From: Erysipelotrichaceae bacterium MTC7
GTDB taxonomy: Bacteria > Bacillota_I > Bacilli_A > Erysipelotrichales > Erysipelotrichaceae
Length of the DNA stretch: 32,000 bases
NCBI GenBank assembly: GCA_001695645.1
Contig: LVZN01000034.1
Location: 85,693 to 117,692, forward strand
Direction of reading: 5' to 3'
Below the pieces are notes generated by a model. It saw only the letters and a list, made by a program, of their open reading frames with translations. It made no database searches and was not told where the DNA came from. Below are positions 10,868 through 18,562 of this stretch, in pieces; the first letter of the stretch is position 1, and every line of letters begins with the position of its first letter. A program made the translations under genes and the position numbers.

Positions 10868-10890
10868 AGGAAAGTATGGAGGATTTGGAT

Positions 10891-11739
10891 ATGAGTGAAA
10901 ATTCAAGAGTAAAAAAATACGAGGCACTACGTCAAACCTTAAATCAAACCCAAGATGATGAACAAGCTGTACAACAAGCGTTGCAACAGTTGCATAAACA
11001 AGATGATGAAGTGAAAACACCAACACATCAAAAACGTACATCGAACTATGATCATACAGAAACAACTGGAGAATTCAAAAATGAATACTTAGATGATTTC
11101 TTGCAAGAAGTTCGTGATTACAATATGAAAAAAGGGGTTCGTGAAAACGAAGATACACGACTTGATATCTTACAACAACTATCAAGTAAACAACGCCAAA
11201 AACGCGCATCATACCTTGATCAAGAAGAGGTGCAAACACCAATTCATGAAGCAAGTGGTGTTGTCGAAAATGCCAATGTTTATACAAGTAATGACGTACC
11301 TGAAGTGAATATGCATATGGACGAAGTGGACCGTATGTCAATGACGCAAGAAATTGCACGACAAGTTCAAGATTTGATTCACCAAGAAGCAGTTGAACCA
11401 ATCGCTGAACCTGTGGTTGAAAGTGAACAACCAACCACTGCTGAACCGATCATTGAACAAACCGTTGTAATGCCAAAAATGGAAGAAGAGGGGCATCAAG
11501 AAACGACACAGGACGTTATTGATGAAGATGATCAAGATACATCAAATTACAATGAATTGCTTGATCAAACCCTTCAATTAAAAACAAAATTGCATGAACA
11601 AGAAGAAGAAATTCACACATTAAATGACGGAGTGGATAAAAACAACCGTCTTTTGAATATTATCATTGCTGTATTAATTGTATTGCTCTTAGCAGTCGTT
11701 GTTACCGTTGTATACTGGTTAATGAACATTCAAATGTAA
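10891..11739 (+). CDS. Hypothetical acidic, Q/E-rich protein with a single C-terminal TM anchor
   Basis: GGAGG at 10878-10882 lies 8 nt before ATG 10891. The sequence is low-complexity and acidic, with short AEP(I/V) repeats. It ends in LLNIIIAVLIVLLLAVVVTVVYWLM. I recognise no family. Confidence 0.6.
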   Translation: MSENSRVKKYEALRQTLNQTQDDEQAVQQALQQLHKQDDEVKTPTHQKRTSNYDHTETTGEFKNEYLDDFLQEVRDYNMKKGVRENEDTRLDILQQLSSKQRQKRASYLDQEEVQTPIHEASGVVENANVYTSNDVPEVNMHMDEVDRMSMTQEIARQVQDLIHQEAVEPIAEPVVESEQPTTAEPIIEQTVVMPKMEEEGHQETTQDVIDEDDQDTSNYNELLDQTLQLKTKLHEQEEEIHTLNDGVDKNNRLLNIIIAVLIVLLLAVVVTVVYWLMNIQM

Positions 11740-11754
11740 GAGAGGAGTTTTATT

Positions 11755-12420
11755 ATGATTAACATAGCGATTGATGGACCTAGCGCTGCCGGAAAAAGCA
11801 CAATCGCAAAACTGTTGGCCAAACAGTTGGGTTATGTACACATTGACACAGGAGCGATGTATCGCTGTTGTGCCTACCAAAGTTTACGCAACCACATTGA
11901 ACTAACGGATTTACAGGGTTTAGAGGATATGTTAAACCATATGGAAGTCTCATTTGATAAAGATGGAAATGTATTTATCAATGATGAAGATGTTTCGAAA
12001 AGTATCCGTACCAATGAAATTAGCATGCGCACAAGCAGCATTGCTAAAATATTACTTGTACGTGAAAAAATGGTCGCAAAACAAAGAGAAATGGCCAAAG
12101 CTAAAGGCTTTATTCTAGATGGTCGCGATATTGGAACTGTTGTTTTACCAGATGCCGAAGTAAAAATCTTCATGGTTGCATCAGTTGAAGCAAGAGCCAA
12201 ACGTCGATATGAAGAATACAAGCAACAAGGAGTTGATATCTCATATGAAAGTATCGCAAGCGATATTGAACAACGAGACTATCAAGATATGAATCGTGAG
12301 ACATCACCGCTTAAAAAAGCAAGTGATGCTATAGAAATTGACACCTCATTACTAAACATTGAACAAGTTGTAAATAAGGTATTATCAATTATTCAAAAGA
12401 AAGAGAAACAAGATGATTAG
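11755..12420 (+). CDS. cmk: Cytidylate kinase
   Basis: [16 protein letters not shown] is the P-loop. DTGAMYR and [11 protein letters not shown] are also present. The SD is GAGAGGAG. Confidence 0.95.
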
Positions 12421-13717
12421 TGGAATAACAGCAATTGTTGGACGTCCAAATGTTGGAAAATCAACCATCTTTAACCGAATGATCGGGGAACGTAAATCCA
12501 TCGTTGAAGATACACCAGGAGTCACAAGAGACCGTGTGTATGCAAAAGCAGAATGGTTAACCAAAGAATTTCGGATTATTGATACTGGTGGAATCCAACT
12601 GGATAACCAGCCGTTTAAAGAAGAAATCCAAATGCAAGTTGATATCGCCTTAGAAGAAGCCGATTCGATTGTATTTGTCGTAAGTGGAGTCGATGGTGTC
12701 ACAAAAGATGACGAATACATCGCTTCCTTATTAAGGAAAACAAAAAAACCAGTCATCCTAGCAGTAAATAAAATTGATGATACGCAACTACAAGCGAACA
12801 TTTATGAGTTTTATGCATTAGGTATGGGGGATCCCATCGCTGTCAGTGGTGTGCATGGAATTGGGATTGGTGATGTGTTAGATCGCATTATTGAATCCTT
12901 TGAAAACGTAGAACGTAAAGACTACGATGAAATGACAAAGTTTTGTATCATCGGTCGTCCAAATGTTGGGAAATCAAGTTTGGTCAATGCCATTTTAAAT
13001 CAAGAGAGAGTCATTGTTTCTGATATTGAAGGAACCACTCGTGACGCTGTCGATACGCCATTTAAAGTGAATGGAAAAGACTATGTCGTAATTGACACTG
13101 CGGGAATTCGTAAACGTGGTAAAATCTATGAAAACATTGAAAAGTATTCGATTTTACGTGCGATGGCTGCCATTGAACGCAGTGATGTTGTCCTTGTCGT
13201 ACTTGATGGTGAGGCTGGTATTCGTGAACAAGATAAACACGTTGCCGGATATGCACATGAAGCAGGGAAGGGTGTCATCATTGTTTACAACAAGTGGGAT
13301 ACGGTCGATAAAGATGAAAAAACCATGAACAAGGTTACGGAAAAAATCCGTGAAGAGTTCAAGTATTTAGATTATGCACCAATCGCTTTTGTTAGTGCAT
13401 TAAACAAAAGTCGTATTCAAACCTTAATTCCATTGATTGATGAAGTACATGATTATTCAACACTTCGTCTACCGACCAATGTCGTTAATGAGGTCATCTT
13501 GGATGCGCAACTGGTTACACCACCACCGACGCACAATGGATTACGTTTGCGTATCTATTATGCAAGTCAGGTAAGTGTAAGTCCACCAACCTTTGTATTA
13601 TTTGTAAATAACCCGGAATTATTACACTTTTCATACAAAAGATTCTTGGAGAACCGTTTACGGGATGCGTTTAACTTTACAGGAACAACCATCCATATCA
13701 ATGCACGTGCAAGATAA
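12413..13717 (+). CDS. der: Ribosome biogenesis GTPase Der (EngA)
   Basis: Two tandem GTPase domains are present (GRPNVGKST...DTGG...NKID and GRPNVGKSS...DTAG...NKWD), followed by a KH-like C-terminus. The start overlaps cmk by 8 nt. Confidence 0.96.
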
Positions 13718-15939: not shown

Positions 15940-16470
15940 ATGGCTAGACCAAAAACAAAATTAGAATTACTTGAACAAGCAACAACCCAATTCGATAAGT
16001 TGGAAGACATGATTAAGCAAATGACGCCACAGCAACAAGAAGCCAACTTCACGTATGATATCACAGGTAAAAAAGAAGCCCATTGGGCACGTGATAAAAA
16101 TTTAAGAGATGTATTGATTCATCTTTATGAATGGCAACAATTGTTACTACACTGGTTAAAACGCAACTTAGATGATGGGGAACAGACACCCTTTTTACCG
16201 GCTCCTTACAAATGGAGTTCGTACGGTGATATGAATGTCATGTTTTGGGAAAAACACCAACAAACAAGCTTAGAGGAAGCCAAAACATTATTAAGGCAAT
16301 CACATAAGACGGTGATGGATGTTATTGCATCATTATCAGAAGATATCTTATTTACCAAAGCAAAATATCCTTGGGTTGGAACAAGCAATATTGCAAGTTA
16401 TTGTATTTCTGCAACTTGCGCACATTACACCTGGGCAATCAAAAAGTTAAAACTAGCAATGAAAGGATAA
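15940..16470 (+). CDS. ClbS/DfsB-family four-helix-bundle protein (DUF1706)
   Basis: 176 aa. KTELLE...EAHWARDKNLRDVLIHLYEWQQLLLHWL...PYKWSSYGDMNVMFWEKHQ...SATCAHYTWAIKKLK matches the ClbS/DfsB pattern as I remember it. Confidence 0.8.
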   Translation: MARPKTKLELLEQATTQFDKLEDMIKQMTPQQQEANFTYDITGKKEAHWARDKNLRDVLIHLYEWQQLLLHWLKRNLDDGEQTPFLPAPYKWSSYGDMNVMFWEKHQQTSLEEAKTLLRQSHKTVMDVIASLSEDILFTKAKYPWVGTSNIASYCISATCAHYTWAIKKLKLAMKG

Positions 16471-16477
16471 AAAATTA

Positions 16478-16705
16478 GTGATTTCATATCTCGTGATCGT
16501 TATTGTTTTCTCAGTAACTTTTGCAATTGGGGTATTTGAAAATCCAAATTTTAACATACAGGACTTCTGTATGAATCTAGCTTTAGAGTTCTTGGGATTA
16601 CTTTTAACCATAACTGTCATTGAAATCTATATCAACGCAAGAAAAGAACAAAGAGAGACAAAGAAACAAACAACAAAACAGAAATATCAAAAACCCTCAC
16701 TATGA
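16478..16705 (+). CDS. Possible small membrane protein (2 TM helices plus a basic K/Q-rich tail)
   Basis: The start is GTG, 8 nt after the clbS-like stop, and the SD is weak. Hydrophobic segments ISYLVIVIVFSVTFAIGVF and LEFLGLLLTITVIEIYI are present. The 3' end runs into the hairpin at 16694-16719. Coding status is uncertain. Confidence 0.4.
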   Translation: MISYLVIVIVFSVTFAIGVFENPNFNIQDFCMNLALEFLGLLLTITVIEIYINARKEQRETKKQTTKQKYQKPSL

Positions 16706-16719
16706 ACAAATAGTGGGGG
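16689..16719 (-). terminator. Hairpin terminator, best oriented for the minus-strand (DUF2087 gene) transcript
   Basis: CCCTCACTAT-GAACAA-ATAGTGGGGG forms a 10-bp stem with one G-U pair. T5 follows on the minus strand (A-run at 16689-16693). On the plus strand only a poor U-tract follows. Confidence 0.5.
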
Positions 16720-16754
16720 TTAACTGTCTATTTATGCGTATTTATGGATATAGT

Positions 16755-16782
16755 ACTTCGCATAATGTGTATTATGTAATAT
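16755..16782 (+). other. dif: Candidate chromosome dimer resolution site dif (XerC arm, 6-bp core, XerD arm)
   Basis: The site reads ACTTCGCATAA TGTGTA TTATGTAATAT. From memory, E. coli dif is GGTGCGCATAA TGTATA TTATGTTAAAT and B. subtilis dif is ACTTCCTAGAA TATATA TTATGTAAACT, giving about 21 of 28 matches to each. The conserved inner CATAA / TTATG half-site cores are present, and the left arm starts ACTTC like B. subtilis. It sits exactly at the convergent gene-orientation switch. Confidence 0.75.
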
Positions 16783-16799
16783 TTAGATATATGAATTTA

Positions 16800-17552
16800 C
16801 TATGACTCTACAGTTTCGGGTTTCCAGTATCGTGTACCGTCATCCGTACGCTTTAAAAATCCATATTCAATCATATACCTACGTATCGTAACAAAATCAT
16901 CGTAGATTGCTTTCAGTATTTCATTAACTTCCATTTCTGTATATTTTTGATTCTCATCAAATTGTTTAGCTATCATACGTAATATTGCTAACTTTGCTTT
17001 TTGCTTTGCTGGTAGCATTTTTAGTTGCAATGGATTTGTACTACTAAAATATCGATCAATGAACTCTTGTTCTTCTTGTAGCGTCATTAGATATCGATCA
17101 TCGACCATTGTCGCGCTTTGATGTATAGGAATGTACGCTTCAAAGGAACTCGATTGCTCTGAGAGCTCGTACATTGCTAAAAATACCTTGGCTTGCTTTG
17201 CTTTTTCCTTTAATTGATAACGTTGTTGTCGGACCGTTGATAATGATGTATGTGTCATTTCAGAGATTTCTTTATCACTTTTGTTATCCGCAAAGTATGA
17301 AAGCATTCGTTTTTGAACATCACTTAACATTGTTTGCTTCTTATCAAGTTTAAATAATTCATGTAAAGGACTACCATGTACATCGCAAATATGCCGTTTT
17401 ACAGCAGCTTTTGCATCTAATAAATCGTCTGCAAAAGAATATATGTGTCCAATTTCATATGTTTTGTCACAATAATTACATACATATGTATCTTTGTTTT
17501 GCACATAACCACATTTCAACGTTTCCAAGCTTAAATCTTCAATTGTTTTCAT
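16800..17552 (-). CDS. DUF2087-domain putative transcriptional regulator (Cys/His cluster, HTH, DUF2087)
   Basis: 250 aa. The N-terminus has C14...C25xxC28...HxCxxH. The central HTH-like segment is KSDKEISEMTHTSLSTVRQQRYQLKEKA. The C-terminus EMEVNEILKAIYDDFVTIRRYMIEYGFLKR is DUF2087-like. The SD is GAGGTG. Confidence 0.7.
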   Translation of the reverse strand: MKTIEDLSLETLKCGYVQNKDTYVCNYCDKTYEIGHIYSFADDLLDAKAAVKRHICDVHGSPLHELFKLDKKQTMLSDVQKRMLSYFADNKSDKEISEMTHTSLSTVRQQRYQLKEKAKQAKVFLAMYELSEQSSSFEAYIPIHQSATMVDDRYLMTLQEEQEFIDRYFSSTNPLQLKMLPAKQKAKLAILRMIAKQFDENQKYTEMEVNEILKAIYDDFVTIRRYMIEYGFLKRTDDGTRYWKPETVES

Positions 17553-17566
17553 ACATTTTCACCTCT

Positions 17567-17599
17567 ATATATAAACATTAACATGAAACGTTTATATAT
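17567..17599. repeat. 10-bp inverted repeat in the 5' UTR or operator region of the DUF2087 gene
   Basis: ATATATAAAC, a 13-nt spacer, then GTTTATATAT. It lies between the putative -10 and the SD of the gene at 17552. Confidence 0.5.
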
Positions 17600-17602
17600 T
17601 CA

Positions 17603-17614
17603 ACATTATAATGT
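17603..17614 (-). promoter_or_regulatory. Putative -10 (TATAAT) embedded in a perfect 12-bp palindrome
   Basis: ACATTATAATGT is a perfect palindrome, so TATAAT reads on both strands. A TTGTTT -35-like hexamer lies about 18 nt upstream on the minus strand. Confidence 0.45.
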
Positions 17615-17662
17615 CATTTAAGTTTATAAAACAAAAAAAGAAGTAAAGTTACCTTAGTGCAA

Positions 17663-18556
17663 CTATCTCTTCTTTTTGTTCATTGCATGTAAATATTCTT
17701 GTTTCAGTCGATCACTTTGAATATGCGTGTATATTTGCGTCGTTGAAATATCACTATGCCCAAGTAGTTCTTGAACACTGCGTAAGTCTGCACCACCGTT
17801 TAGCAAGTGTGTCGCAAAGCTATGTCGAAACGAGTGTGCTGAAATTGCATCCTGCAGGTCTAGTTCAGTTAACTTTTTTTTAATCATCGTATGCACGTAT
17901 TGTCTTGTAAGTCGATTCCCTCTTTGATTGATAAAAACATACTGCAGTTTTTTTGTATTCCAAAGTACACGAGGACCATCAAAATACAGCTGTAAGCAAT
18001 CAATTGCATGTTGGTTAATTGGAATCAATCGTTCTTTATTTCCCTTCCCTATGGCTTTAATAATGCCTTGTTGCAAGTGCAATTGATTCATTTGCAAATT
18101 GCAGACTTCACTAACACGTAATCCACAACCATACATGACTTCAATTATTGCATGCTGATATAAATCCACATCTTTTTTATCATCAAAAGAACCGATAAAC
18201 ATATCTAGATCACTTTCATTTAAAAATGATGGGAGTTTGTTTGCTTTTTTACTTAACTTTACATGCATCGCAGGATTTGCTATCGATGGAAAATTATAGG
18301 TAACATAGAAATGAAAATTACGAATGGAGACAATCATCCGATTGATGGAGTTTGTTTTTTTCGACAACGCTTGTTCTTGGATGAATGCTTCAATTTCCTT
18401 ATATGCAATTGCTTCGACATCACAAAAATTTCGACTTGTCATATACGTTTCATATTGTGTTAAGTCATTTTTGTAGTTTGTTATCGTGGTTAATGCTTTC
18501 TGATCAATCACACTAATGTAGTGGATGTAATTTTCAATGGCTTCATGAAGTTTCAT
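17663..18556 (-). CDS. xerD: XerC/XerD-family tyrosine recombinase (XerD-like)
   Basis: The catalytic set is present: GLRVSE (R), HSFRHSFATH (HxxR), LLGHSDISTTQIYTH (H/Y). It has an N-terminal SAM-like core-binding domain and is about 297 aa. I chose ATG 18556 because the upstream ATG 18562 abuts the -10 box. Confidence 0.8.
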   Translation of the reverse strand: MKLHEAIENYIHYISVIDQKALTTITNYKNDLTQYETYMTSRNFCDVEAIAYKEIEAFIQEQALSKKTNSINRMIVSIRNFHFYVTYNFPSIANPAMHVKLSKKANKLPSFLNESDLDMFIGSFDDKKDVDLYQHAIIEVMYGCGLRVSEVCNLQMNQLHLQQGIIKAIGKGNKERLIPINQHAIDCLQLYFDGPRVLWNTKKLQYVFINQRGNRLTRQYVHTMIKKKLTELDLQDAISAHSFRHSFATHLLNGGADLRSVQELLGHSDISTTQIYTHIQSDRLKQEYLHAMNKKKR

Positions 18557-18562
18557 ACACAT

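Follow-up and report, generated by a model that had tools for sequence, protein, structure and literature searches.

Chromosomes that have become fused into a dimer are separated by Xer recombinases at a site called dif. The canonical system pairs XerC with XerD in E. coli, and CodV with RipX in B. subtilis, on a 28-bp site of 11-6-11 layout with inner CATAA and TTATG motifs. Single-recombinase systems are also established: XerS acts on difSL, XerH on difH, and XerA on archaeal dif. Both in the XerS/difSL system of streptococci and lactococci and in the XerH/difH system of Helicobacter and Campylobacter, the recombinase gene lies near the presumed site and the linkage is conserved, as at the locus described below; such gene-site adjacency has been put forward as a possible hallmark of single-recombinase systems (review, PMC5357621).

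Here, we describe a 28-mer in the window, by which we mean the whole 32-kb stretch of DNA that was analyzed. We consider it very probable that this 28-mer (16755-16782) is the chromosomal dif of a Breznakia-type bacterium of the Erysipelotrichaceae, situated at the replication terminus and with a presumed recombination activity. Breznakia is a little-studied insect-gut bacterium. A sequence-only reading of the same DNA had already proposed a candidate dif here, and the proposal is now backed by the sequence, the local position, conservation, distribution, and a XerD-like neighbor. The locus resembles the canonical dif/XerCD system in its 28-bp length, its 11-6-11 layout and its inner CATAA/TTATG, in carrying TTATGTAA of the B. 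subtilis XerD arm, in its position at a probable convergence of the replichores, and in its 297-aa XerD-like recombinase. Unlike canonical dif, its left arm mixes a Firmicutes-type outer ACTTC with a GCATAA inner part typical of Proteobacteria, and its outer right arm reads AATAT rather than AAACT or TAAAT; unlike the canonical system, it has xerD only 881 bp away. The features discussed are as follows.

16692..16721, strand not assigned: stable hairpin on the XerC-arm side of dif, outside the site, overlapping the end of the 75-aa ORF
16706..16799, strand not assigned: convergent intergenic gap of 94 bp where gene orientation and GC skew switch (local terminus signature)
16755..16782, + strand: very probable dif site, 28 bp, 11-6-11 layout, whole sequence ACTTCGCATAATGTGTATTATGTAATAT
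16755..16765, + strand: left half-site ACTTCGCATAA, presumed XerC-binding arm, assigned by analogy with E. coli dif
16766..16771, + strand: central region TGTGTA, predicted strand-exchange region, one base off the commonest TGTATA
16772..16782, + strand: right half-site TTATGTAATAT, presumed XerD-binding arm, of which TTATGTAA is common to B. subtilis dif
17663..18562, − strand: XerD-like tyrosine recombinase gene, 881 bp from the site, with Pfam domains Phage_integrase and Phage_int_SAM_1

Sequence and surroundings of the 28-mer

The 28-mer ACTTCGCATAA-TGTGTA-TTATGTAATAT was read on the + strand at exactly the coordinates first given for it, and the proposed 11-6-11 organization around inner CATAA and TTATG was borne out. 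Its arms form an imperfect inverted pair in which 7 of 11 positions are complementary and the inner CATAA/TTATG is perfect. The sequence-only reading was also correct that the left arm begins ACTTC as in B. subtilis dif, and that the right arm has a stretch in common with the B. subtilis XerD arm (TTATGTAA is present in both). Its figure of about 21 matches in 28 to both E. coli and B. subtilis dif came close, since comparison with the two sites as given by Kono et al., 2011 (PMC3025954) gave 22/28 and 21/28, respectively. Identity was 24/28 to the published consensus AATTCGCATAATGTATATTATGTTAAAT, which served a survey of 9,537 chromosomes (PMC6199493), and 26/28 to the majority sequence of the at least 120 genome matches listed in our own scan (see below).

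For an independent measure, we used a weight matrix made from 15 Firmicutes species, with one predicted dif each (Kono et al., 2011, supplement 2), to which the window contributed nothing. The 28-mer scored 24.7 bits; on both strands of the 32 kb, no other independent position exceeded −0.1, and the best score over 200 shuffled windows was 16.7 bits. The match to dif is far beyond chance. Moreover, the 28-mer has no other match in the 32-kb window at up to three mismatches.

Among catalogued sites, the one predicted for Lactobacillus casei (ACTTCGCATAATATATATTATGTAAACT; Kono et al., 2011, supplement 2, PMC3025954) has a left arm identical to ACTTCGCATAA and a right arm that agrees with the window's at 9 of 11 positions. 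Against the Erysipelotrichales forms (Erysipelothrix, Thomasclavelia, Merdibacter), the right arm agrees at 11 of 11, and the site of an Erysipelothrix sp. MAG and of Thomasclavelia spiroformis, ACTTCGCATAATGTATATTATGTAATAT, is one central base from that of the window. The centre itself reads TGTGTA in the window versus TGTATA or TATATA in the L. casei and Erysipelotrichales forms. As aligned here, the window sequence is a species-level variant of a common, already catalogued dif form.

The site lies at the convergence of two gene-orientation blocks, each made up of ~15 kb of co-oriented genes, and the local distances first reported for it were confirmed: the 94-bp gap lies between the end of the 75-aa ORF at 16705 and that of the DUF2087 gene (16800, − strand), whose stop is 18 bp from the site, and 881 bp separate the end of the site from the recombinase gene (17663-18562, −). 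The statement that no ORF explains the site held in part: a 61-aa ORF with a TTG start (16620-16805, +) overlaps it, but nothing marks this ORF as a gene. ORFs of at least 90 aa are on the + strand left of the gap, except rpsD, and on the − strand right of it. The genes left of the site encode a peptidase M16, SSB, (rpsD, −), EzrA, a class-V aminotransferase, ThiI, an RlmA-like protein, a HAD hydrolase and a DUF1801 protein, followed, also on the + strand, by ffh, efp, an unnamed 287-aa ORF, cmk, der, gpsA, a ThiF/TcdA-like gene, HU, DUF1706 and the 75-aa ORF. To the right, on the − strand, lie DUF2087, the Xer-like recombinase, flavodoxin, dinB, recN, a TlyA-type methyltransferase, dxs, ispA, xseB, xseA, nusB, and others. 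We noted that rpsD, which encodes ribosomal protein S4 (1497-2114, −), is the sole gene of at least 90 aa in the left 16.7 kb that runs against the presumed direction of replication. The 287-aa ORF between efp and cmk (10876-11739, +) has no Pfam match, and a counterpart of 280-310 aa, likewise with no Pfam match, is annotated at the corresponding position in all Breznakia loci.

GC skew is +0.082 left of the site and −0.132 right of it. The cumulative G−C maximum of the 32-kb window falls at 16793, 11 bp beyond the site, and the least-squares change point at 16820. Gene convergence and a skew switch together are the replication-terminus signature of a low-GC Firmicute; since the skew switch coincides with the gene-orientation switch, the two are not independent evidence, and the maximum is a local one within 32 kb. 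FtsK-orienting motifs were considered as further evidence and set aside. The E. coli KOPS, the B. subtilis SRS and the L. lactis GAAGAAG all point towards the site, but, with all genes co-oriented, the same is true of dozens of arbitrary purine-rich words; the motifs are thus non-discriminating.

On folding, the hairpin at 16692-16721 had a minimum free energy of −18.9 kcal/mol on the + strand (z −4.45) and −14.9 on the − strand (z −3.06), where a U-run, UUUUUGAUAUUU, comes after it. It is probably, on the basis of this model, a bidirectional transcription terminator, and equivalent hairpins are found at the same place in the orthologous loci L003, L005 and L007 described below. A consensus terminator scan of the gap found none, the hairpin having come from folding. 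Because the interval from the DUF2087 stop to dif holds no terminator, transcripts of the xerD-side operon may run on into dif and carry it at their 3′ end. The 28-mer itself, as RNA, was about as stable as shuffled sequence (z 0.25 and −0.13); this lack of an RNA-folding signal rules out a terminator or structured RNA element.

Conservation and wider distribution of the site

We compared seven orthologous loci (L001-L007) from four lineages, in which the Xer protein is 100, 89, 67 and 62% identical to that of the window. A 26-base core, ACTTCGCATAATGTRTATTATGTAAT, is invariant in 7/7 of these Breznakia-type loci and occupies the same convergent gap, while the flanks have diverged; in the more distant Breznakia lineages the central region is TGTATA. 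Each orthologous locus (13-21 kb) has one high-scoring site by the weight matrix. L007 lacks the DUF2087 gene; its site is found 29 bp beyond the xer stop, directly between xerD and hbs. As far as the aligned loci tell, strong purifying selection acts on exactly the 28-mer. The sites in the three diverged lineages, and the variable region that flanks dif in each, are as follows.

L003 (Xer identity 89%): site ACTTCGCATAATGTGTATTATGTAATGT; variable dif-flanking region 11004-12957
L005 (Xer identity 67%): site ACTTCGCATAATGTATATTATGTAATTT; variable dif-flanking region 11080-11817
L007 (Xer identity 62%): site ACTTCGCATAATGTATATTATGTAATTT; variable dif-flanking region 10912-11065
Window: variable dif-flanking region 15940-17552

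The genes that touch dif differ between Breznakia lineages, with DUF2087, the 75-aa ORF, DUF1706, DUF1905 and a 93-aa ORF each present or absent, and in some lineages a flavodoxin gene is inserted before xerD. From these comparisons, gene turnover appears to be concentrated right at the terminus in Breznakia.

Such invariance bears on whether the 28-mer might be an AT-rich imperfect palindrome arisen by chance, or part of a terminator or operator, with no role in recombination. The 28-mer is indeed set in AT-rich intergenic sequence, 34 bp from a terminator-like hairpin. Nevertheless, 26 core bases are invariant down to 62% protein identity while the flanks change, the weight-matrix score falls far outside the shuffled distribution, the 28-mer gives no RNA-folding signal, and its place downstream of both converging genes means that it is not at a promoter. 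We find an origin by chance, or as an operator or terminator, scarcely credible.

To define the distribution of the chromosomal dif form, we scanned one genome per species with the pattern CTTCGCATAA-N6-TTATGTAA, in which position 1 is free. The pattern was found in at least 120 species genomes, with one match per contig. Among the matches listed, the Erysipelotrichales are represented by Merdibacter, Erysipelothrix, Faecalicoccus, Thomasclavelia, Longicatena, Bulleidia and Allobaculum, and the others include Apilactobacillus and many beta-, gamma- and delta-Proteobacteria. The full right arm TTATGTAATAT also occurs in the Merdibacter, Thomasclavelia, Longicatena and Erysipelothrix MAG matches, and the full left arm ACTTCGCATAA is identical in 109 of the 120 matches listed. 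Positions that the pattern left free are conserved among these 120 (A at position 1 in 109/120, TGTATA as the centre, and T at position 28 in 98/120), which argues that the genome matches are real dif sites rather than random ones. At loci with at least 1.5 kb of flank on each side, GC skew drops across the motif in 49/62 genome loci (p = 5 × 10–6) and in 19/20 low-GC loci, both among the matches listed. Viral contigs carrying the same pattern showed the drop in 15/27.

Two of the genome matches deserve a remark of their own. In Massilia sp. BJB1822 (L056, 2937-3596), a weakly Xer-like tyrosine recombinase ORF, 24% identical to the window protein, ends ~40 bp from a dif-type site, and could represent an element integrated at dif. 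A 3.8-kb contig from a 'Methanosarcina sp.' MAG (L043, 2431-2458) carries a bacterial-type dif, ACTTCGCATAATGTATCTTATGTAAACT, and is probably a misbinned bacterial contig.

The same pattern was also found in 50 IMG/VR viral contigs (L130-L179). Five of them (L135, L144, L146, L166 and L176) share an identical site, TCTTCGCATAATCCCTATTATGTAAAGT, and identical flanks. We dropped the idea that the viral matches are filamentous phages integrating at dif: L135, the one examined, is a tailed-phage fragment with large and small terminase subunits and RusA. The viral-contig motifs may imitate dif for the purpose of integration, or may belong to host DNA at the ends of prophages.

That this motif form is present in 50 viral contigs, and that the genes touching the site (DUF2087, the 75-aa ORF, DUF1706, DUF1905) vary between Breznakia lineages, would be expected if the 28-mer were not the native dif but a copy of an attachment site (attL/attR or a dif mimic) left behind by an Xer-integrating mobile element (IMEX). 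We judge this very unlikely. Neither the window nor the 21-kb orthologous loci contain another dif-like site, the next weight-matrix scores being 2.5 bits or lower, and alongside the site there are no phage or mobile-element genes but housekeeping genes in conserved order. Furthermore, the location of the site does not change across the Breznakia lineages examined, L007 among them, and the viral loci, unlike the genome loci, have no skew switch at the motif (15/27).

The neighbouring recombinase and its linkage to the site

The gene at 17663-18562 had been called xerD-like, and this assignment found support in NCBIfam models, in the best match among solved structures and in synteny. An exact look-up of the 299-aa ORF product gave no match; the recorded protein, P0001, begins at the third codon, and the true start is probably this codon (18556), which gives 297 aa. 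Against NCBIfam, the recombinase scored 288.4 bits with the XerD model and 272.5 bits with the XerC model, below the respective cut-offs of 329.6 and 335; the only model passed was the 'tyrosine recombinase' subfamily (284.5 bits, cut-off 279). Two syntenic orthologues score above the XerD cut-off (L047, 332.8; L060, 341.5). The best solved structure was E. coli XerD (1A0P, 168 bits), and alignment with it places the stretches GLRVSE, GKGNKER, RHSFATHLL and LLGHSD..TTQIYTH in the recombinase; we take the catalytic residues to be located in these stretches.

The protein is 88-89% identical to Breznakia (Erysipelotrichaceae) proteins and ~50% identical to the 'tyrosine recombinase' of many other Erysipelotrichaceae. 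The gene order in the window is recN-dinB-flavodoxin-xer, and more distant xer relatives show recN-dinB-xer-deoB. Two relatives at 48-52% identity lie in other surroundings: L008 has the order spo0A-dinB-spoIIM-methyltransferase-xer-deoB, and L009 has the same block without deoB. This order presumably corresponds to spoIIM-fur-ripX-drm of B. subtilis. On sequence and gene order, the recombinase can be regarded as the orthologue of XerD/RipX by position, its score below the equivalog cut-off being put down to divergence. It is, to judge by model scores, not a member of the XerS or XerH family: the window protein reached 104.5 bits with the XerS model, against a cut-off of 267, and 82 bits with the XerH structure. 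The DNA differs likewise, difSL being 31 bp with an 11-bp centre and the window site 28 bp with a 6-bp centre.

Linkage of gene and site was surveyed by tblastn over all fetched loci. A XerD-like gene lies 29-2904 bp from dif in 12 loci, namely the window (16755-18562) and 11 others (L035, L041, L047, L054, L057, L060, L069, L073, L096, L005 and L007). In 12/12, xerD is on the XerD-arm side and is transcribed towards dif, and all the linked recombinases score best as XerD. Six non-Breznakia lineages have a phosphopentomutase-type metalloenzyme gene (deoB) between xerD and dif, and dinB or recN was confirmed upstream in four of them. The conserved block recN-dinB-xerD-deoB-dif is thus seen in many Erysipelotrichales and Bacilli MAGs, and Breznakia has DUF2087, or nothing, where others have deoB. 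Counting related lineages with at least 3 kb on that side, linkage was present in 13/18 and absent from L010, L036, L072, L083 and L089. In L008 and L009 the weight matrix found no dif-like site within 10 kb of xerD, and on this account we rejected a strictly family-wide xer-dif module.

In Breznakia and many other Erysipelotrichales and allied Bacilli, xerD and a canonical dif might still have been inherited as a functionally coupled pair; at its strongest, this reading would have the XerD-like protein alone serve both arms, and, if true, this single-recombinase XerD/dif would be a fourth, independent single-recombinase Xer system. Linkage over 29-2904 bp with constant side and direction in 12 loci, and its presence in 13/18 lineages, is what a coupled pair would produce, but the inherited order recN-dinB-xerD-deoB-dif also explains the linkage, which is missing in L008, L009, L010, L036, L072, L083 and L089. 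The near-equal XerD and XerC model scores, both under their cut-offs, would also fit a single recombinase, but the protein's 297 aa are like those of XerC/D, versus ~356 aa for XerS and XerH. The site itself is a classical one of 28 bp with a 6-bp centre and two clearly different arms (7/11 alike), and these arms are identical to those of organisms that have both XerC and XerD (L. casei and many Proteobacteria). Moreover, XerC and XerD are reported to be ancient and widespread in Firmicutes (PMC8136486), a general statement that was the only one found in the literature bearing on XerC in Erysipelotrichia. Overall, we consider it improbable that a single recombinase serves this site. On the gene orders compared, the simplest reading is that the linkage reflects an inherited gene order and a long-stable terminus, not a functional module.

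Proposed mechanism and significance

As a canonical two-recombinase dif, the site would work as follows. By analogy with E. coli XerCD and B. subtilis CodV/RipX, a XerC-type recombinase, encoded by a gene presumed to lie elsewhere in the genome, would bind the left arm ACTTCGCATAA, and a XerD-type recombinase, most likely the one encoded 881 bp away, would bind the right arm TTATGTAATAT. When homologous recombination has fused sister chromosomes to a dimer, two dif sites would synapse at the closing septum, and the tyrosine recombinases would exchange strands across the 6-bp TGTGTA so that monomers are restored. A translocase of the FtsK/SpoIIIE family, presumably also encoded elsewhere in the genome, would probably deliver and activate the complex. 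No XerC or FtsK gene was found among the scanned window ORFs, and none was listed for the remaining ORFs in the orthologous loci. We infer the pairing of arms and proteins, the location of the XerC and translocase genes elsewhere in the genome, and the recombination activity from these analogies.

The site appears to be a routine dif, and none seems to have been explicitly described for the genus Breznakia before; the 2011 survey of predicted dif sites (Kono et al., 2011, PMC3025954) contained no member of the Erysipelotrichaceae. The finding would extend the dif/Xer system to this family and changes no concept. By marking the replication terminus of an uncultured Breznakia-type genome, the site would aid in orienting and closing assemblies and in annotating replichores. 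Finally, dif keeps its place one gene past xerD in much of the Erysipelotrichales, which suggests a very stable location of the terminus in this clade.
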